Positions 12,130 through 33,868 of a stretch of DNA of 64,000 nucleotides are shown piece by piece. This stretch comes from Microbotryum violaceum (Eukaryota): assembly GCA_001244265.2 (NCBI GenBank), contig CDLV01000013.1:1-64000 (forward strand). Reading direction: 5' to 3'. Position 1 is the first letter of the stretch, and every line of letters starts with the position of its first letter. The notes beneath the pieces were generated by a model. The model saw only the letters and a program-made list of their open reading frames with translations, did not search any database and had not been told where the DNA came from. The position numbers and the translations under genes were made by a program.

Positions 12130-14457
12130 ATGGGAAACGCCAACTCGTCAGAACAGCAGCAGCAGCAACGTGTTTCGCAGACGGGCAGCGCCCCGTCGAC
12201 TTCAACGGGGGGTGAACGGAGGAAGCACGCCCAATCCAGCAACAACAGTAGTGCCGCACCTTCGCCTCGTCTTCGCACCCACACCTTACCCCCGACGACC
12301 TCGGTAGCAACCACAACAGCCCATGCCGAGCCATCGTCATCCGCGAATGCTGTCGCGCATTCATCTTCGGCCGCAGCAGCAGCAGCAGCAGCTTCGGTGG
12401 CTTCGTCCTCGAATGCGATGATCGATGACGACTCGAGCACGACAAGGTCCGGTCGGACATCCGAACCGGGTCGCCGCAAGAAGAGCCTCGAGCTGTCCGA
12501 CGTCGATCCGTCGCTGACCTTCTCGTCGCGAGCACCCTCGCTTGCACGAGTCGTCCGACGCAAGACGAACGATCGCATCCATGGCGACATCATCATCGCT
12601 CCCGAGGACGTCGACGATCCCGAGCCACTGGGGTCAGGAACATTGCGAGGTGCGATGCAGGGCAGAGCAGAACATGTCGTCTACGGTCCTCGAAGGTCGG
12701 CACCACCAGAAACACCGATGACATTGACACCGACGACCGAGCTCACCTCTAGACCGCAGGCGATCGATCTCCCGACACCGGACATCACTGCGACCCTCGT
12801 GGACCCCGATGACACCGTGCATCCCGGATTCGCGGCCTCGCCTCGTCTCACCGCGGCCGTCATCCTCTCGCAGGACCAGATGCCCGTCCTCGTCTCTCCC
12901 ATCAGCGAAGTCGCCCCTGCCGACTCTCCACTGTACGGCGCCGGCAACACGCCCTCGTCGCAGACCAGTGCCGCCAAATCCCCCATCGTTCCGCGCTCAC
13001 TTTCCTCCGTCCTCTCTTCTGTGTCGGCCCCGTCGACGGATGGTTTGGACGCCGTAGAACGACTACCGACATCGAACCTCAGTGCCACCTCGGCTCTTAC
13101 ACCGATCCCGGCTTCGCAACTGCAGACCCCCCACACCGCCCCACCGATGCACACCAGCATAGCCCCGACCGACACCGTTCAGGCACCACCCATTCCTTCG
13201 AATCACCTGCCCATTTCTGAAGCCGACATTCCCTCGGGGACGAGCCTCATCGCGTCCCCCGTCGTCACACCCGTTCCCGAAGGCACACCAACGGGGGCGA
13301 TCGCCTCACCCGCCGTTCTGCTTCCCCCTCGACTCCTCAATGCACCCGTCGCCGCGATCCCGATCCCACTGCTCAGTGTGCCCTCGGCAACGATCGCCGC
13401 GAGCCTTCTCGCCGCAGCTGTCGATCTTGGAGCGGGAGCCGAAGGAGTTCCGACCTTGATCAAATGGAAGGACGAAGATGGTCAGGTGCCCGCTTCGTCG
13501 GACGGGAAACGACCTGCGCAGGGTCCGTCGGAGGTTTACGTCACAGGCACGTTCGCGAAGGGGTGGCAGACCAAGATTGAGCTACGCAAGGCCAAGTGAG
13601 TACCGGACGCCGATCAGGAGATGTGAGATAGCGTCTTACTGATTCTCGCTTGCCTCTGGGTCCAACTCATCAGTGCTGCGGATTTTTCCGCGCTCATCTC
13701 GCTTCCTCCCGGACCTCACCGACTCAAGTTCATCGTCGACAAGGAGTGGAAGGCGTCCAAGAACCTACCCGTCGCCACCGACGCCGACGGGAACTTGATC
13801 AACTACCTCCACGTCAACGCCGCCGATTCAAAACTCGCGACAGAGCTGTGGAAAGTTTCGGGGACCGGATCGACCGCACCAACGACTCGAACGCAGCCTT
13901 CGGTATCGGCACCGAACTCGACGTCACTCTGGCCCACGTTCGGCGACGAAGACGATGCCGAAGCCCCCGGAGCGGACGGCCTCGACGACTCGGAATGGAC
14001 CTCCGAAATACCATATGAACTCGTCGAATACGGGGAATGGGAAGCCGAACGCGACGCGATCGAGAACTCGTCCGCCTTCTTAAATCCTCCCCCCAACTCC
14101 CCACCCATCGTCCTCCCTCCACCTCCCGCTGTATCTGGAGTTCCTCCCCCAAGTCTTCCTGCGCAATTGGAGAAGGGTCCATTGAACCATGCGGCGTACG
14201 TGACACAGGGGAGTGGCGACGATAATTCCATCTTGCCGAAACCGGATCATTCGGTTATCAATCACTTGGCTGCGAGTCCGATCAAAGGCGGTTTCCTGAG
14301 TGTCGGTGTGACGACAAGGTATAAACGCAAGGTACGTTTACTTTCAATCTCCCTCGTATCTCTACCGAAATGGGCTTAGCTGACGCTCCGCTTGCTTTCT
14401 TGACACTGACAGTTCGTCACAATCGTCTATTATAAAGCCCTCGCCGCACGCCCATGA
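12130..14457 (+). CDS. AMPK/SNF1 complex beta subunit (Sip1/Sip2/Gal83 family)
   Basis: MGNANSS myristoylation-type start; CBM (VYVTGTF..W, HRLKFIVDKEW); ASC domain (PPSLPAQL, LPKPDHSVINHL, TTRYKRK|FVTIVYYK). Introns at ~13597-13673 and ~14332-14412. Confidence 0.93.
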
Positions 14458-15540: not shown

Positions 15541-18500
15541 CATCCCCGCTGGTGTACTTGCCCCTGAGCGTCACTGCATATCCGCTCAACGCATTCCCAT
15601 TCAACGAACATACGCCGGTCAAGCATAAATCGCTTGTATGTAATTGTTCTGCTGCCAGACCCGGCGGTGTGAGTTGCTGACCTGCTGATGGATGGCTCCG
15701 GCCGCTCCACGCGTCGCTTCTGACCCGCCACAGGCCACCTTGCCTGTGAAGCCAACGTCAAGGACCCCTCCTTCACCCGCGCCGTCGGACTCGTTTCCGG
15801 ATTCATCGGACCTGAGCTCGCAGCGCTCTCATCCTCTCTCGTCGCCAAGTGGGGCGATGCCATCTCGTACTTGGGCTAATGTGACACGGTCGAGAAGCTT
15901 ACGTTGCCCGAGCTCGACAAGGATGTCGACCGCTTCTTCATCGAAGACGAGATTGTTCCGCGAGTCGTGATCTGTAGTGCGTCTGACTTGGTGCGCTCGG
16001 CACTTGGGTTCGACGCAACACAATTCAAACGCCAAGCGCAGGAAGCTCTTGCGCGCCCCGGACGATCAGAAGGACAAGTCCTGTTCGACAAGGATTGCCG
16101 ACGCTCGCCGGATCAACGGGTGGCAGATTGGGTCGTACCACTCGCTGACTTTGTGAGTGCCATATGCTAAATGACGACTTTGTCGAAGGCCATATGTCAT
16201 GACTTTGATCACATCCCTCGCTTTGCAACTCGGATCGTAGGCACAGGCATCCTGTGGATCCCATCGGCAGAACAAGTTGAAGCTCGCACACGCCGAACGG
16301 CAGGCTCGGTTAACCTTCGGAGACGCAACCCGCGGCCACGACCATGTTGAACGACATCACTTCTTGACGTGCTGCGACGAGCTCGGATCGGGGAACGGTG
16401 GAACTGGGACGCATAGCATGCTCGTCCCATTGGCTTTCGGTACGGCTCCGCCAACCGAGTTTTCGTTCCTTACCGTTCCCCCTCTCATCAATGTCGTACT
16501 CGACCTCGCACAAGATGCGCTCACGCAGACGGCCCGCATGTATGCGCCAGGATTGGCCATCCTCGACAACGAAGCGCATCTCGTTGTGTTAGATCATGAG
16601 GGGTGCCGTATTGCGATCATTCCCGATTGCTGGGGCGAGGGCTTTGGCGAGCTTGCTTTGGTGCTCTCCGTCCTGCTTGGACTGGAGGTCTACTCAGCCG
16701 GACTGTCCCCTCTGTTTCGCTACGCGCTTCACCCCAAGACCGGCATCGCTCCTGTCGCTTTCCGTACACTATACCTTCGACCAGCCGAGCTCGAAGCAGA
16801 TGCTCCCCTGGTCGGTCGCACCGTCGAGTTCGTCGCCGAGGAGCCCATCGAGCTCGTCGACTGTCGAGTCGCAGGGGACAGCTCCATCTTTGGACGTTGC
16901 ACGATCATCTTCGAGCTGACGCGTCCCAGCTTGGTGCAAGGGTTCTCGTCGACGTCAGATCTGACGCCGTCGTTCGTGCTCAAGGTCCAGCACATAAACC
17001 AGAAGTCTAAAGGTGGCGAAGCCGAAGTCCTGGACAAGATCGCTCAGTGTTGCACTTCCCACGCCCCCTCGGCTTCGTCGCTGCTCATCGAAAGACATGT
17101 CTCGCTCTCCGAGAAGGCCAATTCACTCGGTCTTCATCGATGGCAAATGGACGACAGCGCCTTGCCCGTGCTCATGGACCCGGAATATCCCGAACGACAA
17201 CTGCGAGAGTCATCTCGACGCACACTCGACCTGCTCGTCGTACGCAATCCTACGCCGCTACCGATTCGTGTCGACGCTGGCCGCGGTTCTCAGCACAAAC
17301 TCTCCCAGGCCTGCGAGGTCTTTGACCAGCTCCTCACGCTTCTGCCCGCGCTCTGGAATCTCGGCATCCACCATCGTGATTTGTTGCTCGGCAACATCCT
17401 TCACTACGAAGGCCATCTTGTTCTGGTCGACTGGGACACAGGCATCGTTGCGCAACCGGGTACACGCGTCCCTATCGCTGCGGACGTCGCGGGCTCGTTC
17501 AGGATTACCGACGCCACCGCTTCTTACGAAGCCTTAGGGTACCCAAGGGGTTTGGTGAACGGTTGCTACGAGGTTCCCACGCATGACCTTCGCCACGTCT
17601 TCGAGTCCTCCGTCTATTGGTTCCTCCACGTTCTGGACTGGTACATCTATGAATCGGTCTCGGCCGAGTTGTGGGAGACACTACAACTCCGCGCACTGGC
17701 GAACGAACCGACCGTTTCCCCCGCTCTCATACGCATGGACCTCTGGGAGGGGGCGGCGAATTTTCCCAAATTACGCCAAGCGTTCCTCGAGGATCTGGCA
17801 ACTGTGGATACTGAGGTCCACGATTTGGTCGACGTCATGACGTGTGTTCGTCCGGGCAGCCACCCCACGATCTTCACCAGTGACAGCTGTGTCAAGCAGA
17901 AGATGGTGGAGGTGCAGGCCGAGCTGCGACGAATGCTGGAGCGGGCGCAGCAACCTGATTATGGTGGTATTCTGGGTCGTTACCACAGATTACTGAAACT
18001 GCAGTAGCGTATAGATATCTCATTTCCCCTAATTGAATACCTGTTTTATCGGCACAAGCTGCGCATCCCGTGTGTTTCATGCTGCGATCTTTGCCTTTTC
18101 CAATTTCTAGACTTGAAGCGATGATTAACGCACCGCGGGGCGGCGACGAGTCGCTGAACCTCTGGCTCAGTACCAATCAACCAACGGAAAAGCTTCAAAA
18201 ACCAAAGTGCATTTCTTCGCGAATCCCTTTATTTGTTACGATATACCCTCGCCGTTGAAAAGTTGAGCCTCAGCAGTGCCTGCCGTATCAATGTTTTGTT
18301 TTTGTGGAGAAACTCCGAATCGCTACTTCATAGCGGATATACCACCCAGCATGCACAATGATGACTACCAACCGTCGAATTAATGGGTTGTAGCTAGTAG
18401 AAAAGACCAATTCGTCACAGTCACCGGCGAGTTAATTCTAGTACATAGCTTTTTTGGGAATCGGGAGCCGATCCACGGTCATAGCCTCCGAGTCGTCGAA

Positions 18501-18785: not shown

Positions 18786-19484
18786 TGTTAGGCTCAGGTG
18801 GTCACTCGCAGGTCGCCAGGGACTGAAGAGCTAGATGAGCTAAAAAGGAAAGGCAAGGCAAGGAACGAAAGGGTGGAGTTGAAGAGTAGAAAGCAGGCAG
18901 CCAGACCGTAGCTTACCTTTTCGACTTCTCATGGCATCTCTGGAGATTGTGAGTATTTGGCGCTGATCACAACAACTACAAAAAGCTCTCTTTTCTGTGA
19001 GCTGATTAATCAAGTGTTACACAAGTCCAGCATACGAGAGCATTTGTTTCCTTTGGCTATGGTAAGGAGCCCATTACTCAGCGGCGGCGTAAGTAAAGGC
19101 GGGTTCCTCGGTAGTAGTCTCGATGTTACTTAACGAATAGACAGTCCCAAATCCAGTCGATTGTCAAGTTTGAGTCAAGAGTGGGGGTCCAGTGAAGGAT
19201 GAGAAAAGAGGAAAAGAGAAGAGCCAGAAGAGAGCTACGGATCGCTATTTAAGGAGATCAGGGGAAATGAACAAAGAAAGAAAAAAAAGAAAAAGAGATG
19301 TAGACAATGTGGCTCTTTGTGATGACCTCGGACAATAATTACAGATGAGATAAATAGCAAAGGATGACAAGGGGTGCATAATGGTTGTCAGTCAAAGGCA
19401 GGGAAATGAAAGGGAGGTCACGCAAGTCGGTCCGTCGGTCCGAGGTTTGAGCTTGGACCTACCGAGTGGCTGCCGAACCTTACA
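18786..19484. repeat. Solo-LTR-like dispersed repeat
   Basis: TGTTAGG...CCTTACA termini (6/7 inverted). Its left ~400 bp match 59517-59907. No matching TSD seen. Confidence 0.6.
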
Positions 19485-20639
19485 GCTAGCTATTCCGGGG
19501 TGCAGTCTGTGGATGAGTTAAAGAAAGGCAGCAGCGTGTGATGTCCCGCAAATCGTTTCAGCTCGACCCACAGGACTCTCTCGACAAGCCGTTTGATCGA
19601 CAGGCAAAGAAATGGGGAGGGCGGACTGCTCTTGGCTTCTTGAAGGAACACCGCCGCCCTTGTGGTGCCTTTTGCACTTCGCGCAGGTGTGTCTGTCCAT
19701 CGCAGCCCTTATCCCACTGCGGTTGCATACTGCAATAGAAGGGCCGACGTCAGCTCCCTTCCCTGCATCAGCTGTGGCCATCCTATAACCTTAAGAACCC
19801 AAAAGGGCACTGAAATAGACATACCTGGTATCGTCATCGCAGCGCTCTGACGACGACGGCGACACGGCGACACGGCGCACGTCGCTCGTAGAATGCATGT
19901 CTTTTTGTGTTCCGACCCGACGGGTAATTTACCATACACACAGGCCTAGGTGTCATCTTTCGCACCCACTGGGCCGCAGCGCAGCTCGCAGGTGACCAGG
20001 TGACGCGGTGACGTCAGAGTCGTGGAAATCACGATTGCGCGCCCGCATCCCAGCGTCGTTCGTCGGGTCGTCTGCAAGCGTACACATCCGCTCGTCGCAG
20101 TCTCCTTACATATTGCAATGGTCTTGCTTCTCGCTTTACAACGGGTGCTTACTTTACCACATCCACTCGGTGTTCAGGTCCGACTTCGCGTGGCCCCTAC
20201 TGAATAGTCATCGGCGCGCTACTGGTCGTATTCTGACGTCATGGGCTCGAGTATGCTAGTTCCAGCACCTCGGGCAGACATAAAAAATACGCCCAAACAG
20301 GCGCGCGCGCAGCGCCCCCTCACGTGCCTTCCAAGTCACTGCCCCAGCGGGGTGTACCCTTGCTACCCGAGGGCGATGACTTGGCCCAGATTACACCCAA
20401 CTCTCTGCTTCGAGTCGATTCTGTGTACACACAACATTCTCACAGCTGCTAGATTGATTAGGAAAGTGGGTAGTAGATGCATTCCTTCCTTCACATTTTT
20501 CACGCATCTTTCGGATGTTGTCAATGTCACGTGTCCGAAGCGGTCGCGCGGGATTTCGGTCCCGAGATCGAAGGGTCCGAGCACACGCGGTGGCGGCAGT
20601 CGGCAGTCGGCCACGCGCGCCGAGGCCTAGCGCAACACG

Positions 20640-23600
20640 GTGTTCAACGTTCGGCTGCCCAAGTCCAGACCGTCGGACCACCCCGACCACCCCGACTTCG
20701 ACCTGCAGGATGCCTTTCTGCCCATCAACTACTCAACCCCCTATAGAACCTTCGTCGACAAAGGTGGTCGTAAAAGGAAAAAGAAAGAGCCACCCATTGC
20801 GAGCTCGTCAACAGCACCCACGCCCACGTCCAACTCCACGTCGTCCACATTGCCCCCCCCCCCCCCCCCCCCACAACACGAACCCATCCCAGGCGCTTCG
20901 GCCTCACATTACACTCGTGGAAGCGACATCACTCAACAAGATCTGGACGAATTTGGGCAGGAAGGAGTGTGGGTGGATGACGAGGACTTAGGTGGGATGG
21001 ACCTTGCGTCGGAAAACGCGCTGGAATCGACTGTTTACACACGTGTCGACGACTCCGACTCATCCCCACGCCCCACGCCCCACCCACCGACAACTCTACG
21101 CCACTCCGCCCAACACTGCCAGACGAGAAGGCTATCTCAAGTACATCACGCTTGACGCTAAGCTTCGGAAATCGCTCCGTGCCAAGCTGTTTGGGCGCTT
21201 CCTCGAGTTTCGCCGCGACAGCAAGCTCCATCTACGACCGCTCGTATCGGAAGACGATCTCGATGACCACGATGCTCCGCCGCCATGTGCGTGCAACTGC
21301 GTACTCACTCGCGAGATCATCTTGTACGATGTGACGGCATGTACGTGACAAGGCAGCTCAGCTTCACTGTCCCCGAGTGTCAGTCACGAACCGAGCAGCA
21401 CTGATGCGTGTCTCCCTCTTTACCTGTGCCTCCAGTCTACAAATTGCAGGTCACCTTCTGTGCCTCCGAGTCGCGGTGTGCTACGGACGTCGAACGCTTG
21501 GCCCAACTAGGGTTTATCTCTTCGACGGCTTCAATGCCGATGACCGCCTTCTCATTTGGACTGGTCGAGCAGGCCCACGCGAGCTGGAAGGTCAGCCCCC
21601 GCGCTCTCACCGGCTATGCGGACGGCCTCAAAGAGTATTACTCCCGTTGTGGGTGGGGTCGAGGTCACTACACGGGACATCCTTGGGTGAATTTAGACGG
21701 CGCCATCGTTTCAGGGACACATGCTTAAAGCCTGCCTTCCGCGCATGCAGGACAAAGACCTTCGGAAGCAACTGCAAAGGGCGATCGACGAGTACCGCGC
21801 TCTCGAAACATGCGAGAAGGACAGCGGCGACCTTCTCGTAGGCACCGTCGATTCGTATTCCAACAAGTGTCCCGCGTGCTTCGGGCCAACGCGGCTTAAT
21901 CAACCTTGTCACGACGTCACATTGGATTGCGTGCTTGCATACGACGGCAACTTTCAGCAAACGCGTGAGAAAAACTCGAAGCATGACGTCCAAGGAATCG
22001 TTCCGGACATTTTCTTGGCTGAGGAAGAGGTTCAGGCGATGAAGGCCGAGGTTGAGGCTTCGGTGCGGCCGACCAAAAAAGTGAGTAATGCCGCTCTTTG
22101 CATTTGCCTTAATGGGATCGCTTACCTCTACACCGACCCACCGTCATAGGCGTGCACAGAGTCGTGGAAGGCTGCCGACGACGGAGCTGGCTCAACCTCG
22201 TCACGAGTAGTCGACACCGGACTCGTTGCCTGCGTATGCCGTCGTGACGTGAACCTGAAAATGGTCAATCTTGAGAGGTCTGGTGAAAAGTAAGCGCGGA
22301 GCTGTCTGGCGGGACTTAGTCGCTTCCGCTTTCCTCTCGAATCCCAGTACTAATGCGCAGATTCCCCTCCGATCACTCAGATTGTACTATGCGCTTGCCA
22401 TCCTCAAGCACATTTCAGAGCGCCTTCCTGAACACGCCAAGATCGGAGTCTTATACGACATTGCTTGTAACTTCAAGCACCACATTGAAAAGGTTCGCAT
22501 CGATTACGACGGGTCCCTTCCTCCTCAATTTCGTTGGCACTGACCAAATGCGCCTACTTTATCATTTGTCACCAGAGGCAGCTCCTGCCAAAGCTTTTCA
22601 AGCGACTGGAGTTCGCCACGAGCGTCTTCCACGCATACGCCCATATCTGGTCCTGCCAAGTCGAGTTCAACCCGCGCCTCATTCCGAACTTGGGGCTGAC
22701 TGATGGAGAGGGCTGTGAGCGATTGTGGAGCGGGCTACGGTCGCTCATTCCCATCAACCGCCCCTCGAACAAGTCCCATCGCTTCGTCAACCTGGCGGTC
22801 CGTATCCAAGCACTGAATGACGCGACCGTCAACAAGCTGGGTAAGCCGCACCTGGATCGCAATTATCTCAATCACAATGCTGACACTCGATATGTTTTAT
22901 TTAGGGGCCTGGTTCTATCGTCGCTACCATGAGGCAAACGACAAGGGTGTCGCTGCTGAGGAAGAGCTTAATAGCATCATTGCCTACGATTCGAGGTTGA
23001 CCGAAGATGCGCTCCGCCGCAAGTGGGAAGAACAGTGACTGGCGCAAGTGCCAAAGACAGCTGCGCAGCAATCGGAGGCGGATCGCCTGAGGGAGAGCGA
23101 CCTCTATGGACTTGTGGAGAGCCTCTACAAGATTGAGTCGCGAATGTACGTAGATCATCTGGCCAGGCCGTCGCTCACTGTCTATGATCCTGACTTGCTG
23201 GACTTTTGCAAAGGGATACCGAAGAGCCCGATTCAGACGTCTTGGAATCGCTAAGCGCCAAACGCCGCAGCCTCGGGATGGACATCGATCGAGCGGCAAT
23301 GGCACAGGCTCGTTATGTCACGGGCCTCTCGTCCAGAGGTCAGTTAATGTGTGTTGCTCACATGATTGCTGTAGCTTGCACTGATAGCTTAGGTGCTGTG
23401 CAGAACTTCGACATCTGTGCCAGTGCTCTGTGGCGTTGCGCAAATTTCATCTCGAGGTGATTGCCTGCAAAACCAGTCGGGAGAAGCTACTTTCGACGGG
23501 TCGTGGCAAGGGAGGTGCAAAGCTAGGTCAACGAGCGGCCAGCAAAGCTTGTGTGCTACAGACGGCAAGATTCATTCTGGCGCGGAAAAGGCTCGCAAGA

Positions 23601-24568
23601 CGTACAACAAGGCCGTTGAGGCCTTCCGTCTCGCGATGGGATCAACACCTTCGAGCCTACTCAACAATCTCCGGATTTCCGACAACTTGAAATCTGCGAT
23701 CGACCTCGATGAGACGGACCCGTTCTGGCAGGACGGCTTTTTCACGCATGTTGAAGCTGCTTGGGCTGTCAATCCTTGGGTCAAGCGAGGAGTAACAGCT
23801 GTACGCGCCAAGGATCGAGTCGGTGAGGAGAAAGCGCGGATCGGCGCCGAGGTGCGGCAAGCTTTGGCTTGGCTCGAAGATGAAAAGACTCGTCTCACTA
23901 GTTGCCAGACACTTTGGACTAACGTGCCGGGTAAGTTTTCGACACGGCGTGCTCCATATCACCTCTTAGATCGCCCTAACATCTTTCAAACCATCTCAAC
24001 AGATACCCTTTCTGAATGCATCGACCCAGCTGATGCCAAGTCCATATTCGGCACTGAAGATGTTGAAGAGATCCGAGGCCGCGCGCTCATCATACTAGAT
24101 CGCCGGATGGAGCTTCTGCAGCTGCGCGAATGTTCTTGGTCCCAGAACGACTATTTCTTCGATGTTTGGCTCGAGACTCGCGGGCAGTCAGAGGGCCATT
24201 CCGAGCCCATGCCTCCTGCACTGTCAGAACTTCGTGGTTTACATCAACGATTGAACGCAACGGGGAGAGCTGTCAAGAAGGTAAAACATCACGAGCGACC
24301 TGCACATAATCGATCCGGAACACGCGGTACTATGGAGAGATCTGGCCTCGACGACTCGGCGGGGCCTCCACCGCTGGCCCGTGACGTTCAGCAAGTGCGG
24401 GCCATTGAGGCACAGATGGATATGAGCGACGGGGCTGAACTCGCAAAGGAGGTGGGACCTCTCTCCGCACAACTCCTCGAGCAGGACGGTGAGATGGGCA
24501 GCTCTTCAGATGAAAGCTACGGCGATGACTTCGCTGGTCAGAAAGACGAACACTTCTCGGACGTTTAG
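20640..24568 (+). pseudogene. KDZ transposase with N-terminal CxC1-like cysteine cluster (Kyakuja-like), multi-exon, with lesions
   Basis: CACNC..VTFC..LAQLGF..MPMTAFS; CPACFG; DGNFQQ; CTESWKAA; DTGLVACVCRRD; SGEK; VLYDIAC; FHAYAH..CQ; GLTDGEGCERLWS. In-frame TGA at 23036-23038 and a frameshift near 21070-21120. Confidence 0.92.
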
Positions 24569-26949
24569 ACCAGCTTCTGATGTAGATTGAATTAGTGGAG
24601 CAACTTAATGTTGAAACAATGGAAATGGTGTTTGCAAACTATAGTCGTCTCAATTGCGGTGGGTGAGAGTAATAACACCGTCTTCTAGAAAGAAATATTG
24701 TCAGACCTAATCTCTGGGCTGCGCCTGCCTTACTAAGCTCCTGCCGGGTGACTTGCGGGTGACTTTTCAATCGAAGCACATGCAACTGCTCGAGTACCTA
24801 GAATGTCTACCACGTGAAAATGGGTGAGTGAGTTCGATCACTATAGAGAATGTATCTTCTTCCGAACAAGACGGCTGGGCGGTTCACTCCCTCTGAGAAT
24901 TCCCGCTCGAAAGACTCGACTTTCTGCCATGGCGCCATGGCGCGGCCAGAGAACCTTTGCACCAATCCCCATCCCTGCTACTGAGACTTGCGCCTGTTTT
25001 AAGAAAAGCTTGGTGTCAAGGTCTCAAGATCAAGTCTATGCTTGACGGGAAGTCGGAGATCTTTTTTCCTCACCTCCTAGACTGCGCACACCGGTGACGA
25101 ACAAGACCTTTCATGGCGTCAAATCAATTAGATCCGCGCATACAGCAAACAGAGATGATGATGCAACTATAACCCTTAGTTAGGAGCTTCAGGAGACCCA
25201 TCCGGGCAGTCAGGTCAACGACTAGTGCACCGCTCGATGCTGCGACACTCTTCGGACGGCTCTCATGGCCGACAATACATCAGAGCCCGGGTAATATCAT
25301 AGAGTCATAATCTGAGAACATGCCTAACTCGAAGATCGCGATGAGAGCTGAATGGCCTCATACCGCCGAGTCTTTGTACATTCGGATTCGCCAGAAATGC
25401 CACTGACAATTCATCCTAGTGCGGCAAACTTAATGCAAGAATTCTCTCTGCTTTGAGCACTCACCATGTGGTCTGAGGATTGGCGGCCTATCTCATTGAC
25501 GAGAGGGGATGTTTCTCAAATAAGAGGTAGGTATGAGCGGCCCATCGAGAACTTTCCAGTTTCAGACGCTTTCAAGTCAGCCGCCAGGTACGGCTGCCGA
25601 TTTGCCACTGCATCGATTACTGTGTCTCGGAGTCAATTGGGTTTTTTGGTTCAAAAGCCTGTTACAAGCCTAAGCCTTCCATGTTCTCACCAAATATATT
25701 ATCGAGTACGACCCGCCTCTCATCAAGCACGTACTTTGTCGCTACTTCGCTACTGACGACTGATTTCCTACGTGTTCCGCTCCGCTTTTTTTTTTTTTTG
25801 TATGAAACTCATCGCTAATTTGCAAGACGAGAAAACCCCCTACGGAACTAAAGGAGATGCTACCCAGTATGCACGATGATGACCACAACCGCCGCTTGAT
25901 GCGTTGTAACTAGCAGAACAGACCAACCCGATACATTCGAGTTCAAGTCCCCCCACCCACGGTTGCTCCCTCCCAGAGACGAATGAAAGGAAGATTGAAG
26001 ATTATACACAAGGAATCGGGAAAAGATGGATGAGTCGTTGGTGATGGTACATGTGTTGTACAGGCGAATCCGATTATAGTTGTACAGTTGAACCTTCTTC
26101 GATCTTTTGACTTCAGCCCCCCCTGAGACCGCCATACTCCTTGAAGCCCCTTAATTCTTTGAGACGCGTCGAACAAGGCCTCCGATGGCACAAACATCCC
26201 GCTCAATCCAAATGATTCACGTGGTCCAAAGGGGGAATGTAACCCCTGCGACCGCAGCAATCACATACCCCTTGTACCCGTCTGCGCTGGATCTCCACCG
26301 CGGATTCCAAACCCCTTTTCGGTTACCAAAGTCCGCTTCATTTGTGCGTTCAGGCTCAGCTTCTTCTGGGAGCGCGCGCCGCTTGAAGTCAATCGGCCGG
26401 GGGTCGTCACCGTGGCCCAGCAGTTCTGATTGGCACTTTGGCGAAGACCGAGCCCGGCCAGATGCAACCCTTGCCCGTTCACTTTAGTGCTGATAGATGA
26501 TAAGAAGATGCTAACATACACTGCAATTTGTGGAATCGCGTTGCGAATTCTGTCCATTCATTCTTTGCTCAAAGAGTCACTTCCGGAAAGCAGACGCTCC
26601 GTCTGGACCACGGATCAGGGAGCACTCCATTCTCACAGGGCAATTCAACTCTACATAATACTTCGGAAACAAAACAGAACAAGAAGGATAATGTTTGTGA
26701 GCAGGATTACGTCACTGGCACATCCCACGTCAACAAGGAGAGGTCGGTCTCGAGCGACCCAGGGGAAGATTAGGCACGAAGGGCCAACGAACAATAACCC
26801 TCTCCGCCTTTAGTCACCAAGAGCCGGATGCATATGAAGGAAAACTATGACATAGCGACTGTGGTGGCCTGTGTTGTCCAACGAATTCTGGCCCTTCAGC
26901 ATGCGCGTCGACGAGTCCGGCTGGCCCTGAGCGCTCGGCCATCGTCACG

Positions 26950-29000
26950 TCACTCGCTGTCCTCGTCGGAGCTCGTGTTCCGAGTTCGTCGGTCAGCATC
27001 GCTGTCGCCACCTTCATCGCCGTCGGCCATTGCCTGGTCGGCAATTGACCCGATTACCTCTTCCTCCAGCATGAAGCTCAGCTCGCCTGCGCGCAGCAAT
27101 GGGATGATCCGATCCAGGTCGGGTCCCAACAACTTGAGCTTGCCACTCGGGCTTCGAAAATCCGCTTTGCGAAGGAGGGCGCCGCGCTGAACAATGATTC
27201 TGGCGTTGTCCCGGAGGGCCTTTACGTTATAGACGAACTTGGGCGATTGGATTTTCTCGCCGTCTAGTACGGAGCGTCGGCGCAGCGCGGACTCTGAAGA
27301 CAGTGAGCCGGGTCAAGATTAGGCACCGTGTATGGAAGAGTAGGCAGGCTGCACTCATTGTACTCACGGAACAATTCCTTGAGGATGAGGCTGTACCATT
27401 GGCGTTTGGTCTCAACGTTCTTGTCGGCCACGGGTGCGTTCCAAGCTGTGAGCAGACATTCGCTGATACATCAATTGACCTCTACTAGCTGTTGCCCTTT
27501 CCTGAGATCCGGTAAAATCTCGCCACTCACCGGCGCTGACAATGCCGGCCCGCTTGTCTGCTATAATCGCTGTGCCTGCGACGCAATGCGCAAAGTCGCG
27601 GACCAGCGGTCCCTGCCCCTTGTCGGCCCAACCCTGTCGAAGCGCAAACGCCGCCCCGCCCACGGAAGCGACCACAATGTGCTCCTTGTTGGTCTCAGGT
27701 AAATTCGAGGAGGCGATAGCAAACATCTCGATGCCGTAGTTGTCCGAAAAGATATTGGCCTTCCGAAAAGGGAACGGTGAAGAATCGATAAGCAAAAGGG
27801 CCTCCGATCTGAAGCTTGGACTCAGAAGGACTCTCACCAAGGATGTCAAGGATGCTTGCAGTCCCTGCCTCGCCTTTTTGATCATGGCCAGGTTCGTTCT
27901 GCTTCGAGGCTGCGGAGCCGATGCAAGGTGGGCCGCTCGAAGCGGTGGATCCGATGAAAGGTGCGCGGCCGCATCGTCCTCGGCCTGCTCCAATGCAAGA
28001 GCCGCGAGACACTCCGCCTTCTCAGCCTCACTGCTGCAGATTCTGTTCCAATACACGCGCGCTAGGTCCTTCCTTTGCATCAATTTGGTTGGAACTGAAT
28101 GTACTTCTAGAATGCATTGCTCAGCGTTGAGTTGGTCAGGATAGACGAGAAGGCCGAAGTTGAAGCGCTGGCTTACCGGTATGCCCGTCGTTGATCAGAA
28201 GCGCTGCAAAGAATCGACTTTTCTGAAAGTCGTTCCATGGGTTGCTCGCCGACAGCCGGCTAACGGGCGAAGTGACCTGTCTCAAGTCGTCCGGCCGAAT
28301 CTTATTCTTGATGCAGTATTCGAATTCTTCGTACAACCTCTGCACAGCCCACGCCTTATGTTGTTCTCGTTCCGTCTTGTTGGGGTTGCGCGTATCAGCG
28401 GAGTACGCCTGCTCGTATAGCTCCTCCGGCAACAGCCTCTTCGCCGGCGTCCAACTTGCTGTCCTCCGCTCGGTCGTCGAAGCCGGGAGCTTTTTCGGTG
28501 CAGCATTGGATGGTATTCCGGTCGGAGCGAACTGGTAAGGTGCTGTGGAAAGGAACGACTGATGGACCATCGAAACGCCGGCACCGTCCTCTGCAGACAC
28601 TGACTGCGGGGACGCTCGCGGGTGGTTCAGCGATGCGTGGCCTGCCTCCTCGTTTTGGGAAACTTGTGCGGCCCGCGACGTTTGGCGATCGTGAGCGGAA
28701 GGCTAAGTAGTATTTGGCAAACCTGCCGCGTCAAAGACAATACCCGTGCTGTCGGAATTGTTTCCTCCTTGTTCGACCATACTTGCGATGCTTGCGAGAT
28801 TGTTGCTTGTTGGCGGAGCTAGAGATGGGCCATCGATGCGTCCAGGATCGGGGAACGTGGGACGGTAAACTGGTTGATTGGACGAAGCAGATCCCGGAGA
28901 CGATGGATACTTGTACGTCGCAGGATTCGAGATGGCCGTTACGCCAGCAGAAGTGGACGCTGGATCGGGCGCACGACGGTGTAACGTCAGAACAGACCGA
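26950..29000 (-). CDS. Second (accessory) gene of the KDZ element, unknown function, multi-exon; 5' end uncertain, in-frame TAG at 28703-28705
   Basis: Linked minus-strand frames: low-complexity N-terminus, NPWNDFQKS, KDLARVYWNR, NYGIEMFAIASS, RQWYSLILKELF, acidic C-terminus ..SSDEDSE*. Confidence 0.6.
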
Positions 29001-30098
29001 TGCTATACGCGATCGACGCGACGGCCACCCACGGACCCGAATAGTCGTTATATGCGGACTGATAGGGAGTCCAAGGCAAGGTGCACGACTCGTACCTAGA
29101 GGCAGCTTATGAACCTATGTGTCAGATGTGATCGTGAGCCGGTAGTCCAGGCAGAGCACCCGTGTCGATCGGCGGCAAACATACTGCTGTTCATCGCCGG
29201 AGCGCCAAACGTTGGCTGCGATTTGGAAGGTGGTTGATGGGATTGACTCATCATGACAGGAGCAGCAAGACTATGACTGATCCGGTATTTCGAAGTGGGC
29301 GTTCGTTTCAGACTGTCGCAAGGTGACGGATGCTCGTTTCTAGTTCGTTACTTCGTATACGTAGTAGGGGGCGATTGAGCAAAGCAAAAGAATGGGCGGT
29401 ATGCGCGAGCGCGACGCGTCGCGGCCCTCTCCAGCGTCTCCGGAGTCGTGACGCGTCGACGTCCCGGCCAGTCCCGGCCCCAATTGTTCCGCGCGACCCG
29501 TGCCGAATCACGTGTTCGAGGTAGCGCTCTTGTTCAGCTTGCAGAGGACAATAGTAACTCTCAAAATATAGGCAAAAATCCGAATGCACTATTACTCGCC
29601 GACTGTGCCTTTGTTTCCAGGTTTTCCACCGAGTTATAGTGGGAGTGAACGTCTCGGTAGCTCGACATCGAGGTGGGCATACCTCAACGGGGCCAAGTCG
29701 GCGCCCTGGGGTAGCAAGGGTACACCCCGTTGGGGCAGTCACTTGGAAGGCACGTGAGGGGGCGCTGCGCGCGCGCCTGTTTAGGCGTATTTTTTATGTC
29801 TGCCCGAGGTGAGTTCCAGACGGCATGCGCCACATCCTTCTTCGGCCTTTGGACTTGGGCGGTGCCGCCGGAATCGAGGTGAAGATGGGTCAATCGTGGA
29901 GAGCTCGACCCCTTGGGTGGAAACGTTGGCCTCAGTGGTGGGTCGATTCGCTTGCCTTACTGAAAGGTTGCCATTACTGACGTGATAGCATCTGCGGGGT
30001 TCTGACCGGGCGGGTCCGAAAAAAGGGCCGCTCAAGTACAATGACAACACGTTCGCTCTTACCGGCTCCCCATGTTGACCAACACCGATGTTCGGAAA

Positions 30099-30294
30099 AT
30101 ACACACCAGACTCGGGTTTCAACGAGACGGCGTTCAAGCGCGTCGAGTCGCTCGGCTCAAGCACACAACAGGTCTTGCAGGGCCTTGACGGAGTCAGTGC
30201 GTTCAAGCGGGCCTGCAAGACCTGTTGTGTGCTTGAGCCGAGCGACTCGACGCGCTTGAACGCCGTCTCGTTGAAACCCGAGTTTGGTGTGTAT
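30099..30294. repeat. Long inverted repeat (83-bp arms, 30-nt spacer)
   Basis: 30099-30181 is the reverse complement of 30212-30294 with one mismatch. Confidence 0.95.
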
Positions 30295-31259
30295 GCGCAG
30301 TTAAACACGTTGGAAAACCCAGATGAGTCATAATCAACGTTTAGGAAGATGCGCAGAAGAGTAACCGTCTTCGGAAGGTTTACAACATCCTAGCGGTCCT
30401 TCAGCTCGACGATCCTGACCACCTCGTTGTCGACCTCGACGGCGGACGCTCTGTCGAGATGAATCGCGAGTCCGAGCGAAGTCCGCCGATGGATGTTGGC
30501 GTTAGCGCAGTACAGATCTGACGGTATTAAGGAGTTGGAGCAGCTTGTAATTGGGCGGTTGAAGACGCTTTTGTGTGTGTTTTTCGAGACTGTTAGAGTC
30601 GGGTGGTGCGGGCGGTGATGGTGTCTTCAGGAACCTGGCGTCGGTGCGCTCGTGATGCTCGATCGATGGCTCATGTAGGTTGGTGAGCATCGGATGACAG
30701 CCCAATTCCGCGCCTCCGTCAAGTAAAAGTGTAAGATGTGCTGTTTCACGTGTCTCGCCCAGGATGCTGAACGCGTCAAATCGTCTCGATCGGCTTCAAG
30801 TTTGCTTTGAACGGCATCGAACGGGATCAGCGATTGAGAGCGCGTCTTGCGGTGACGTGGCAAACTACATTGCGTTGGTTCGAAAGCCGAAGAATTGAGG
30901 ACGTTAGGCATAGACCAAGATAGGTAGAGGGCCGAGAAGAGCTCCATGCGATTGTCGCGCCGCGGGCAACACGTGACTTCTGCTAACTTCCCGTGCTCAA
31001 GCGCGTGCGCGCGCCTGAAGTTGGCGAAGTTGCACTCCCTGAATACCTCCAGCATCCTAGAAAAAGAGAAGAAAAATCCAGTACTGTTTGTGCCCTCGTC
31101 GTGCCTGACTAGCTTGACTCGCCTAACGCGCCGGGTGGTCGCCTCGGCAACCGACCAGTCACGTTCATCGTCGGTCTCCGACGCGCGCAGCTTTCTTCCG
31201 CCGTTACCTCCTTCCACGCGAGTCTGCACAGCCTCCACACACCCGCGCGTCATTCAAGC

Positions 31260-33868
31260 ATGGTGAACAAACAACGTGCTCGGCTTTCGCCCAAGGCTCC
31301 ACTCAACACATCTCTAGCTAGCAAACGCCAGACTCGAAGTGCTACGCACGCGTTGTTGAAGCTGAAGTTGGAGCACTGCGAGGTTGAGTCACCACCCCCC
31401 GTGGAGTACTTGCCCCTGAGCGCCGCCGCACATCCACTCAACGCATTTCCATGCAACGAGGAACATACGGTCGAGCAAAAACCGCTTGTATGTAAATGCT
31501 CTGCTGCCAGGCCCGTTCTGAGTTGCTGACCTGCTGATGGATGGCTTGTCGGCTCCACGCGCCGCTTCTGACCCGCCACAGGCTACCTTGCCGGTGAAGC
31601 CAACGGCATGGACCCCTCCTTCACCCGCGCCATCGGACTCGTGCTCGGATTCATCGGACGGCTCGCAGCGCTCTGACCCTCTCTCGTCGCCAAGTGGGGG
31701 GGAGCCAACGCGCACTCGGGCTCACTCTCTCACGGTTAAGAGGCTTATGTCGTCCGATCTCGACATGAATGTCGACCGCTTCTTCATCGAAGACGAGATT
31801 GTTCCGCGAGTCGTGATCTGTAGTGCGTCTGACTTGGTGCGCTCGGCACTTGGGTTCGACGGAACACAATTCAAACGCCAGGCGCAGGATGCTCTTGCGC
31901 GCCCCGGACGATCAGAAGTACAAGTCCTGTTCGACAAGGATTGCCGACGTTCGCAGGATCAACGGGTGGCAGATTGGGTCTTACCACTCGCTGAGTTTGT
32001 GAGTGCCATATTCTGAATGACGACTTTGTCGAAGGCCACATGTCACGACTCTGATCACATCTCTCGCTTTGCAACTCGCATCGTCGGCACAGGCATCCGG
32101 TGGACCCCATCGGCAAAGCAACTTGAAGCTCGCATACGCCGAACGGCAGGCTCGGTTGACCTACAGAGAGGGAGTCTATCATCAAGACCATGTGGAACGA
32201 CATTACTTTTTGACGTGCTGCGACGAGCCTGGGTCGAAGAACGGTAGAGCTGGCACGCATAGCATGCTCGTCCCATTGGCTTTTGGTGCGCCTCAGCCAC
32301 CCGGGTTTACCGTTCCCCCTCTCATCAATGTCGTACTCGACCTGGCACGAGATGCGCTCAAGCAGCCGGCCCGCATGTATGCGCCAGGATTGGCTATCCT
32401 CGACAACGAAGCTCATCTCGTCGTATTAGATCATGAGGGGTGCCGTATTGCGATCATTCCCGATTGCTGGGGCGAGGGCTTCGGCGAGCTGGCTTCCGTG
32501 CTTTCCGTTCTGCTCGGACTGGACGTTTATTCGGCGGGAGCGTCTCCGTTCTTTCGCTACACGCTTCACCTCAAGACCGGCATCACTCCCGTCGCTTTCC
32601 GCACACTATACCTTCGCCCGTCCGAGCTCGAAGCAGATGCTCCCCTGTTCGGTCGCACCGTCGAGTTCGTCGCCGAGGAGCCTATCGAGCTCGTCGAATG
32701 TCGAGTCGCAGGGCGCAGCTCCATCTTTGGACGCTGCACGGTCATCTTCGAGCTTACGCGTCCCAGCTTGGCGCAAGGGTCATCGTCGACGTCAGGTCTG
32801 TCGCCGTCGTTCGTGCTCAAGATCCAGCACGTAAATCAGAAGTCCAAAGGCTGCGAAGCCGATGTCCTAGACAAGCTCGTCCAGTGTTGCGCTTCCCACG
32901 GCGGCCCGTCGTCGCTGCTCATTGAACGACACATCCCGCTGCCCGAGAAGGTCACGTCACTCGGTCTTCATCGATCACAAATGGACGACAGCGCCTTGCC
33001 CGTACTCATGGACCCGAACTATCCCAAACGAAGCCTGGAAGAGTCGTCTCGGCGTACGCTCGAGGTGTTGATCGTGCGCAATCCTACGCCGCTACCGATG
33101 CGCGTCGACACTGGCCGCGGTCCTCAGTACAAACTCTCCCAGGCCTGCGAGGTCTTTGACCAGCTCCTTACGCTTCTGCCCGCGCTCTGGGATCTCGGCA
33201 TCCACCATCGTGATTTGTCGCTCGGCAACATCCTTCACTACCAAGGCCATCTTGTTCTGGTCGATTGGGACTCAGCCATCGTTGCCGAGCCGGGTGCACG
33301 CGTCCCTATCGGTGCCGACGACGCCGGCTCGCTCAGGGTTACCGTTGACACCGCTTCTCACCAAGCCTTAGCGTACCTGGTAAAATATTTGAACGCTTGG
33401 AAAATGCCCAGTTTGCCCTCGCATGCTCTTCACCACGACTTCGAGTCCTCCATCTATTGGTTCCTCTACGTTTTGTACTGGTACATCGGTCCATCGGTCT
33501 CGGCGGAGTCGTGGAAAGAACTACAAATCCGCCCACTGGCACCGTCGGAGGCGAACGTTGGGTCCTTTTGCCTCGATCTTACGCGCCTGGAGCTCTGGGA
33601 GGGGGGGCGTCATCCCAAATCACGGCAAGAGTTCCTCGAGGATCTGGCAAATGTGGATACTGAGCTCCACGATTTGGTCAACTTCATGACGTGCACTCTT
33701 CCGGGCAACCTACCTCCCGTCGGCACGAGTGAGGCGCGACACGAACTAGCTGTCAAGCAGAAGATGGTGGAGCTGCAGGCCGAGTTGCGACGCATGCTGA
33801 AAGCGGCGCAGCGGCCTGATTATGGTGGTATTCTGGGTCGTTTCCGCAGGTTACTGAACCTGCAGTAA
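31260..33868 (+). CDS. FunK1-type (fungal-type) protein kinase, copy 2, apparently intact (3 exons)
   Basis: HHRDLSLGNIL, LVDWD, SIFGRCT, HALHHDFES. Introns at ~31487-31580 and ~31999-32092 join the frames without stops. Confidence 0.85.

Follow-up and report, generated by a model that had tools for sequence, protein, structure and literature searches.

A decayed KDZ transposon of Microbotryum violaceum and its probable partner gene

The KDZ transposons of fungi are large and have been recognised only recently; they cause drug-resistance mutations in Cryptococcus and carry TET/JBP genes in rusts and mushrooms. The closest described systems are KDZ1-3 of Cryptococcus neoformans, which are 9.2-10.9 kb long, carry terminal inverted repeats (TIRs) of 139-241 bp and encode a CxC1+KDZ transposase (Huang et al. 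2024, 10.1101/2024.08.15.608186; 10.1101/2025.05.19.654958). In the accessible parts of these two preprints the target-site duplications (TSDs) are given as 8 bp (4-8 bp for KDZ2 and KDZ3), the elements bear extra open reading frames (ORFs) without a predicted domain, and they were caught transposing into reporter genes. They were assigned to the Dileera clade (Huang et al. 2024, 10.1101/2024.08.15.608186). The present study concerns an element of this kind in a 64,000-nucleotide stretch of DNA from the anther smut Microbotryum violaceum (GenBank assembly GCA_001244265.2, contig CDLV01000013.1, positions 1 to 64,000 of the forward strand), referred to below as the window. The element occupies 20266-29811 and holds two genes, a transposase gene on the + strand and a second gene, here called gene 2, on the - strand. 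It is almost certainly a KDZ transposon insertion, and probably an old copy, no longer autonomous, of a cut-and-paste transposon of the KDZ superfamily that is specific to Microbotryum and has a co-evolving partner gene.

The window element resembles KDZ1-3 in its basidiomycete host, its size class (~9-11 kb), the combination of CxC1 with KDZ, long TIRs (122 bp here), an 8-bp TSD and an extra ORF without a recognised domain. It differs in that the window copy is dead, and mobility, which was observed in Cryptococcus, is something we infer here. The extra Cryptococcus ORFs did not surface as gene-2 homologues in phmmer or profile searches, which returned Microbotryum proteins only, and linkage of a partner gene to the transposase with co-divergence across subfamilies is documented here, for the Microbotryum element. 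A placement of the window element in Dileera is suggested by its likeness to KDZ1-3 (CxC1+KDZ, TIRs, 8-bp TSD) and would stand on that likeness only.

Other described lineages were compared as far as the accessible text of the reports describes them. The Dileera family Zisupton-1_PGr has an 8-bp TSD (Kojima 2025, PMC12730594). Like this family and the TET-bearing KDZ elements, the window element has a KDZ transposase, a host from the Pucciniomycotina, a TSD of 8 bp and a second gene of its own, but in the TET-bearing elements of rusts and mushrooms the second gene encodes a TET/JBP dioxygenase, and there is none here. Kyakuja elements have a 7-bp TSD, CA..TG termini and no TIRs (Kojima 2025, PMC12730594), from which the 122-bp TIRs and 8-bp TSD set the window element apart. 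Zisupton sensu stricto has a KDZ domain and an 8-bp TSD (Bohne et al. 2012, as cited elsewhere), and KDZx1 of C. deneoformans combines CxC4 and SWIM domains with no detected TIRs (Huang et al. 2024, 10.1101/2024.08.15.608186). The KDZ domain and the 8-bp TSD are common to Zisupton sensu stricto and the window element, but the latter has CxC1; at the thresholds used, Pfam found only CxC1 and KDZ in it and matched neither CxC4 nor SWIM.

A preliminary description of this DNA, made from the sequence alone, had named the element as its best candidate for an undescribed system. That idea did not survive the comparison, as the same architecture is described, and mobile, in Cryptococcus KDZ1-3. No description of KDZ elements in Microbotryum was found in the literature, searched by title and abstract; Repbase, Dfam and the supplements of Kojima 2025 lie outside this scope and may list one. 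In its accessible part a survey of Microbotryum repeats names no KDZ class among the TIR elements, and the word 'Zisupton' occurs 0 times. KDZ elements may be under-annotated in Microbotryum.

The limits of the element were examined in the sequence of its ends. The two TIR arms (Table 1) are complementary at 116/122 positions (95%). In an end-to-end alignment the similarity begins exactly at CACCTCGGG and decays past ~125 nt. Immediately outside both tips stands AGTTCCAG, in direct and not inverted orientation. This 8-mer by itself is unremarkable (4 copies in the window vs ~2 expected), so what counts is where it stands; a full 8/8 match placed directly against each of the two TIR tips would arise by chance with a probability of ~4^-8. 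The terminal 28-mer occurs at only two sites in the window, both of them element ends (0 expected from 100 shuffles). The 122-bp TIRs and 8-bp TSD of the preliminary description are thus confirmed, as are its two inward-facing genes, the CxC1+KDZ transposase reading along the + strand and the second gene towards it along the - strand. The element spans 9,546 bp, or ~8,995 bp before a later insertion nested within it. A blastn search of the window with the element returned only the element itself and its own TIRs, and each gene was found in single copy by tblastn.

Contigs from three DNA sequencing runs (X1, X3 and X12) and from one RNA-like run (X16) were compared with the window. Depth, taken as summed contig depth and not as copy number, serves only as a sign that a sequence is multi-copy. 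In X1 it was ~120-130 in the flanks vs mostly 500-1400 inside the element, in X3 ~51-56 vs mostly 440-1400, and in X12 ~4 vs 8-190. The left TIR bin lay several-fold over the adjacent flank bin in X1 and X3. These depth steps at the TIR bins are a sign of a multi-copy family bounded there. An X3 contig (19456-20324) spans the left junction and an X12 contig (29779-30215) the right one; therefore the same insertion is present in two differently labelled organisms. The possibility that the inverted repeat and its flanking 8-mers are a product of chance or rearrangement draws on the ordinary frequency of the 8-mer. Against it stand the arms that end exactly at direct 8-mers, the 28-mer tip unique to both ends, the KDZ transposase inside and the rise in depth at both ends in three DNA runs, and it is effectively refuted.

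The transposase gene was identified by Pfam, by comparison with homologues and by the introns seen in X16. Searches with the KDZ and CxC1 profiles in HMMER, as the preliminary description had proposed, scored both domains above their curated cut-offs on the + strand. The best KDZ exon reached 78.1 bits against a cut-off of 26.6 (PF18758), compared with 150-187 bits in intact relatives, and a CxC2 match fell under its own cut-off. TET_JBP had no Pfam match in 19 element ORFs or in 10 gene-2 family proteins, so the early impression that TET/JBP is lacking was correct. The transposase exons are 82-96% identical to proteins of M. saponariae, M. silenes-dioicae and M. lychnidis-dioicae. Five joints with GT..AG ends were found in X16 (22289>22381, 22490>22574, 22839>22904, 23145>23214 and 23929>24002). 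The last intron is in frame, stop-free and concealed within a long ORF, and the 391-aa ORF that contains it was accordingly rejected as a single exon.

The preliminary description had overlooked that the transposase of the window copy is a pseudogene. Lesions were judged by comparison with homologues, among them P0015 of M. saponariae (1076 aa). The frame changes between 21062 and 21073, at a tandem ACGCCCC duplication (21068-21081). A TGA at 23036-23038 stands where P0015 has arginine. A 2-nt insertion at 23551-23552 shifts the frame; it is missing from X1, X3 and X16 contigs and ambiguous in X12. The nearly invariant CRHD motif of relatives is replaced by CRRD, and the gene has no start codon. 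X1 and X3 contigs diverge from the window sequence after 20639, and an X16 contig meets the window at 20640, arriving from ...ATG CCG CCG AAG... 27 nt upstream; a deletion in the window copy probably took away the transposase start. The invariant FHAxxH..C..DGEGxERxW block is kept in the last KDZ exon. With two frameshifts, one premature stop and no ATG the window copy is dead and has no autonomy. These lesions bear on the autonomy of the copy, not on its membership of the KDZ family.

A joint 22750>23786, with 1035 bp skipped, was found in X1, X3 and X12. It agrees with the structure of the protein P0036, an internal-deletion derivative of M. saponariae whose gene still adjoins a full-length 567-aa partner gene. 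Therefore a deletion-derivative subfamily that retains gene 2 exists.

Homologues of gene 2 were sought widely. The 260-aa ORF that forms part of the gene returned 6 proteins by phmmer against 1.84 billion representatives, and a profile search for the gene-2 family returned 14 clusters; all are from Microbotryum. Metagenome contigs held 0 matches to the TIR 28-mer, and the gene-2 profile gave 135 pattern matches there, with 0 confirmed. The top three ESM Atlas clusters (0.93-0.95) are unnamed Basidiomycota hypotheticals with 58-106 members; they could be the gene-2 family. Gene 2 itself is 94-98% identical to proteins of M. saponariae, M. silenes-dioicae and M. lychnidis-dioicae, and these identities, with those of the transposase exons, place the window in Microbotryum.

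The neighbours of the gene-2 homologues were then taken from locus tags. A KDZ transposase lies within 6 locus tags at 24/34 loci, which represent three subfamilies. In subfamily a, the type of the window, the tag next to gene 2 is a KDZ gene at 2/5 loci, both in M. saponariae (Chr1-1g01165/01166 and Chr1-3g01555/01554). In subfamily b (M. saponariae and one M. silenes-dioicae locus) a KDZ gene lies no more than 3 tags away at 12/16 loci and is directly adjacent at 8 of these; seen from the other side, 11/12 full-length subfamily b transposase genes (1000 aa or longer) stand within 3 tags of a partner. In subfamily c (M. silenes-dioicae) 10/13 loci are linked, always at a tag distance of 4-6. 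The subfamily c element (e.g. M. silenes-dioicae C002g01469...01473) seems to hold several extra gene models between transposase and partner.

Divergence of the two proteins was compared between subfamilies. Identity between a and b is 39-42% for the transposase and 39-42% for the partner, between a and c 39% and 28%, and between b and c 38-42% and 27-30%, and within subfamilies it exceeds 91% for both alike. From linkage and co-divergence together it follows that the pairing is older than the split of the subfamilies, and therefore that gene 2 belongs to the lineage as one of its components and did not join it recently as cargo. Gene 2 is thus very probably an integral component of the element, and the preliminary description, which took the second gene for a real component, is supported by this repeated linkage to KDZ genes in other Microbotryum genomes.

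Gene 2 could instead be a passenger without a part in transposition, taken up a single time as a host or orphan gene and kept since. It has no recognisable domain, some transposases have no detected partner, some homologues have no listed KDZ neighbour, and the extra Cryptococcus KDZ ORFs were tentatively likened to cargo, in the accessible part of that preprint, by Huang et al. 2024 (10.1101/2024.08.15.608186). One such homologue, of 432 aa, is 99% identical between M. silenes-dioicae (P0004, C047g12333) and M. lychnidis-dioicae (P0009, MVLG_05693). In both cases it is the lone member of its cluster and its listed neighbours include no KDZ gene; it could be a relic or have been domesticated. 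P0004 is 51% identical to subfamily a and 43-45% to b, and subfamily c is only 27-30% identical to either. As P0004 is nearer to a and b than c is, it nests inside the element-borne diversity and not outside it. This nesting, a pairing that holds across three subfamilies with transposases ~38-42% identical and a partner whose divergence tracks theirs, the linkage at most loci and the lack of a homologue beyond Microbotryum among the representatives searched make simple cargo an improbable account of gene 2.

Several observations weigh against a mobile family with an integral partner gene. The locus-tag lists are partial, as one of the searches covered only proteins of 259-2000 aa and 15/17 members of one cluster were listed. 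10/34 gene-2 loci of subfamilies a-c have no listed KDZ neighbour, and the homologues P0004, P0009, P0006 and P0124 and the M. lychnidis-dioicae fragments P0012 and P0013 are unlinked among the listed neighbours. In M. saponariae 11 c-type transposases form one cluster, with 89-92% identity to those of M. silenes-dioicae, yet no c-type partner protein from M. saponariae appeared in phmmer or profile searches. The contrast between an intact gene 2 and a broken transposase is not significant by itself, since ~4 lesions in 3.3 kb predict ~1.6 in 1.3 kb. The insertion is at the same site in X3 and X12, and the mobility of the family is therefore inferred and not observed. No empty site was seen among the 15 joints listed (30 more are unlisted), which is no evidence of absence.

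Table 1. Features of the KDZ element in the window (positions are those of the whole 64,000-nucleotide stretch)
Feature	Position	Strand	Basis or remark
Left TSD, AGTTCCAG	20258-20265	.	direct copy of the right one
Left TIR, 122 nt	20266-20387	+	begins CACCTCGGG
CxC1+KDZ transposase gene, pseudogene	20640-24568	+	Pfam, homologue comparison, X16 introns
CxC1 cysteine-cluster domain	21444-21641	+	PF18802, E 2.6e-7, 31.2 bits, cut-off 26.9
KDZ catalytic domain, four exons	21928-22815	+	PF18758, E 1e-21, 3.3e-8, 7e-5, 6.5e-4
Transposase introns	22290-22380, ~22493-22575, ~22841-22904, 23146-23213, ~23931-24002	+	ends refined to GT..AG
Spacer between stop codons, 2381 bp	24569-26949	.	contained in other family copies
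Nested 551-bp insertion	25781-26338	-	bounded by 7-bp direct repeat TCCGCTT; probable non-LTR retroposon or 3' fragment
Gene 2 (partner gene), intact, 433 codons	26950-28570	-	open frame, four GT..AG introns, homologues
Gene 2 exons	28570-28177, 28094-27838, 27759-27531, 27445-27368, 27293-26953	-	ATG 28570, stop 26952-26950
HMG-box-like three-helix region of gene 2 (WNDF...VP...YW...), approximate	27965-28245	-	fold resemblance, Z <=4.6; split by first intron
Gene 2 upstream region and 5' UTR	28571-29689	-	X16 joint 28574>28829
Right TIR	29690-29811	-	
Right TSD, AGTTCCAG	29812-29819	.	

The structure of gene 2 was read from X16 joints and homologues. Four joints, all CT..AC on the + strand, fall within the gene (28094>28177, 27758>27837, 27445>27531 and 27293>27368). 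The intron at 27760-27837 is 78 nt long, in frame and stop-free and thus concealed within a long ORF, and the 260-aa ORF was rejected as a single exon for this reason. Three public models (P0001-P0003) keep this intron as 26 extra residues, a segment absent from all other subfamilies. The public models start at an upstream ATG (28780), which is followed by an in-frame stop at 28705-28703. The stretch 28575-28828 is missing from X16 transcript contigs, and depth is 477-1056 in the bins of 28736-29563. As X16 contigs lack this stretch, the shorter start at 28570 is the likelier one. The stop at 28705-28703 was considered as a lesion of gene 2 and rejected, as X16 skips the stretch and the ATG at 28570 opens the 433-codon frame. 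The upstream ORF of gene 2 reached no curated Pfam cut-off.

X16 had been labelled 'RNA?' by guess, and it was treated as RNA only on account of canonical intron joints missing from the DNA runs; none of its five transposase and four gene-2 intron joints is present in X1, X3 or X12. Both genes yield spliced transcripts in a related fungus, as this RNA-like run shows. X16 depth is ~0 in the left TIR bin, where cover is low. At the right end X16 shows one loose end before 29759 and another behind 29816; between them stand the outermost 53 nt of the right TIR and AGTTC, the first 5 letters of the TSD. The sequence beyond them is unrelated on both sides, and both ends possibly belong to one contig. 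This piece may come from another copy, or a derivative, of the family whose tips are alike, or it may hint at a target preference.

The gene-2 family was aligned to define its conserved parts. A variable, low-complexity N-terminus is followed by a conserved helical block, E..YC...R...L..P..R. Next come an invariant WNDF..S...VP...YW segment and a central block, SS..E...F.V...GG.AF..R. The C-terminal part has a strongly conserved DLxRIIPLxRxGxLxF..EE block and then an acidic tail. No Pfam family reached its cut-off in the 10 members scanned, and this includes the Myb/SANT domain.

Structural models were then used in the search for a fold. In AlphaFold models of two members that are ~30% identical, the WNDF...YW segment had a pLDDT of ~68-92. 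When this segment was searched by structure, HMG boxes were the commonest named fold with both models (Z 3.6-4.6), with 8/50 rows titled HMG for one model and 12/50 for the other over the same region. The best matches were SSRP1 (Z 4.6, rmsd 3.2, 62 residues) and an HMGB1 box (Z 4.5, rmsd 2.7, 56 residues). A few further rows (Abf2p, TFAM and SOX) are presumably also HMG-box proteins. One family fragment is named 'HMG box domain-containing protein' in UniRef. A GTF2I fold was considered on Foldseek rows at E 2-5 and an ESM Atlas cluster at 0.76, and was dropped as beneath any threshold.

Other results speak against an HMG box in the partner. Overall mean pLDDT is low in the two models (50.9 and 54.9), and all Z values of the HMG matches are under 5. 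Foldseek against the PDB gave no match at E <= 0.001 with either model, Pfam HMG_box was unmatched at E <= 10 in 10 family members, and a sequence-profile search of the PDB gave 0 matches. On balance we put the proposal that gene 2 encodes an HMG-like accessory cofactor, DNA-binding or architectural, somewhat short of an even chance.

HMG-box host proteins serve as cofactors of transposition and recombination, as HMGB1 does with RAG1/2 and Sleeping Beauty. The partner would resemble them in a predicted L-shaped three-helix region and in having an acidic tail elsewhere in the protein. It would differ from them in being encoded by the element and not by the host, and Pfam HMG_box is unmatched in it. 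CACTA elements have a two-gene TnpA/TnpD system, and PIF/Harbinger elements encode a transposase and a Myb/SANT protein. The analogy with these elements would lie in a separately encoded, family-specific, probably DNA-binding partner that co-evolves with the transposase. Unlike PIF/Harbinger, the element here has a transposase of an unrelated superfamily and a partner without Myb/SANT.

A working model of transposition can be proposed. Intact sister copies would supply the DDE-type KDZ transposase, which would bind the long TIRs, excise the element and reinsert it with a staggered 8-bp cut. The partner of ~430-580 aa would be an accessory factor encoded by the element. It would most likely be DNA-binding or architectural, would combine an HMG-box-like domain with an acidic tail, and would help to assemble or regulate the complex of TIRs and transposase. 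In this it would be comparable to the second ORFs found in PIF/Harbinger and CACTA elements. A stronger version, which we regard as doubtful, makes the partner an obligatory second subunit of the transpososome that bends or pairs the TIRs or recruits the transposase through its HMG-box-like domain, with the extra ORFs of other large fungal KDZ elements as fast-evolving counterparts. If this were true, this KDZ lineage would work with two components, as PIF/Harbinger does.

A different role for the partner would be that of an element-encoded regulator, a counter-silencing chromatin or DNA-binding factor in the niche that TET/JBP genes occupy in KDZ elements of rusts and mushrooms. KDZ lineages repeatedly bear a second gene thought to counter host silencing, as stated in the accessible text of Kojima 2025 (PMC12730594), and Microbotryum repeats are described as undergoing TCG hypermutation. 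The HMG-like region and the acidic tail would also suit a regulator, but this fold resemblance is equally compatible with a transposition cofactor. Neither a catalytic nor a chromatin-reader domain was found by Pfam in 10 members or by the PDB profile search, and a regulatory role seems unlikely. Whether the partner is cofactor, regulator or cargo is directly testable in the Microbotryum lineage, which offers a clean case, with exact ends, a linked partner without a known domain, intact pairs in M. saponariae and splicing of both genes. It may serve as a model for the extra genes of large fungal transposons.

The preliminary description had noted ~2.4 kb of unexplained sequence between the 3' ends of the two genes. 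The gap is real, measuring 2381 bp, but part of it is now accounted for. Other copies, as seen in X1, X3 and X12, lack 25781-26331; there a joint 25780>26332 skips 551 letters with 7 shared. The left end of this nested insertion is a run of 12-14 T, that is, a poly(A) tail on the - strand, and the bin 25838-26251 has a depth ~3-5x that of the rest of the element. The insertion is probably a non-LTR retroposon or a 3' fragment of one. Neither a reverse-transcriptase ORF nor a SINE head was found in it by Pfam, Rfam and tRNA scans, and it may be 5'-truncated. An X16 contig spans 26421-27293, so the 3' UTR of gene 2 measures at least ~530 nt (at least 26421-26949). X16 cover drops after ~24.6 kb, in accord with the transposase stop at 24566-24568. 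The remaining ~1.2 kb (~24.6-25.8 kb) has little X16 cover; it belongs to the family, because DNA contigs cover it. Spacer ORFs gave nothing at the curated Pfam cut-off, and Rfam and tRNA scans of 20200-30400 gave nothing.

Convergent genes, a long spacer and a true retroposon nested in that spacer might point to a composite unit, in which gene 2 and the spacer come from another mobile element that was nested in, or fused to, a one-gene KDZ element. Gene 2, however, is not framed by a further TIR or TSD pair of its own, depth over the spacer and gene 2 is element-like in three DNA runs, and contigs cross 24976-25780|26332-27212. The same pairing also recurs in divergent subfamilies. A composite origin is very unlikely.

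The surroundings of the insertion were also examined. A host-like gene for an AMPK beta subunit lies to the left, at 13627-14379. Two + strand ORFs (16241-18007 and 32021-33868) flank the insertion; they are fungal-kinase-like paralogues, 73% identical. The right one matches Pkinase_fungal with 29.0 bits (cut-off 24.1), and other kinase- or APH-like Pfam matches are weak. The transposon has members of one locally duplicated gene family on both sides. The left flank at 18800-19627 has repeat-like depth (X1 523-542, X3 330-357) vs 128/56 in the next bin, and there are loose ends at 19484/19485 in X3 and X16, which suggests that a further repeat lies close to the insertion site on its left side. 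About 290 bp right of the element lies a hairpin (30099-30294) with 86-nt arms, 98% complementary, and a 24-nt loop. Contigs of all three DNA runs break within this hairpin, which could be a MITE-like palindrome or a foldback.

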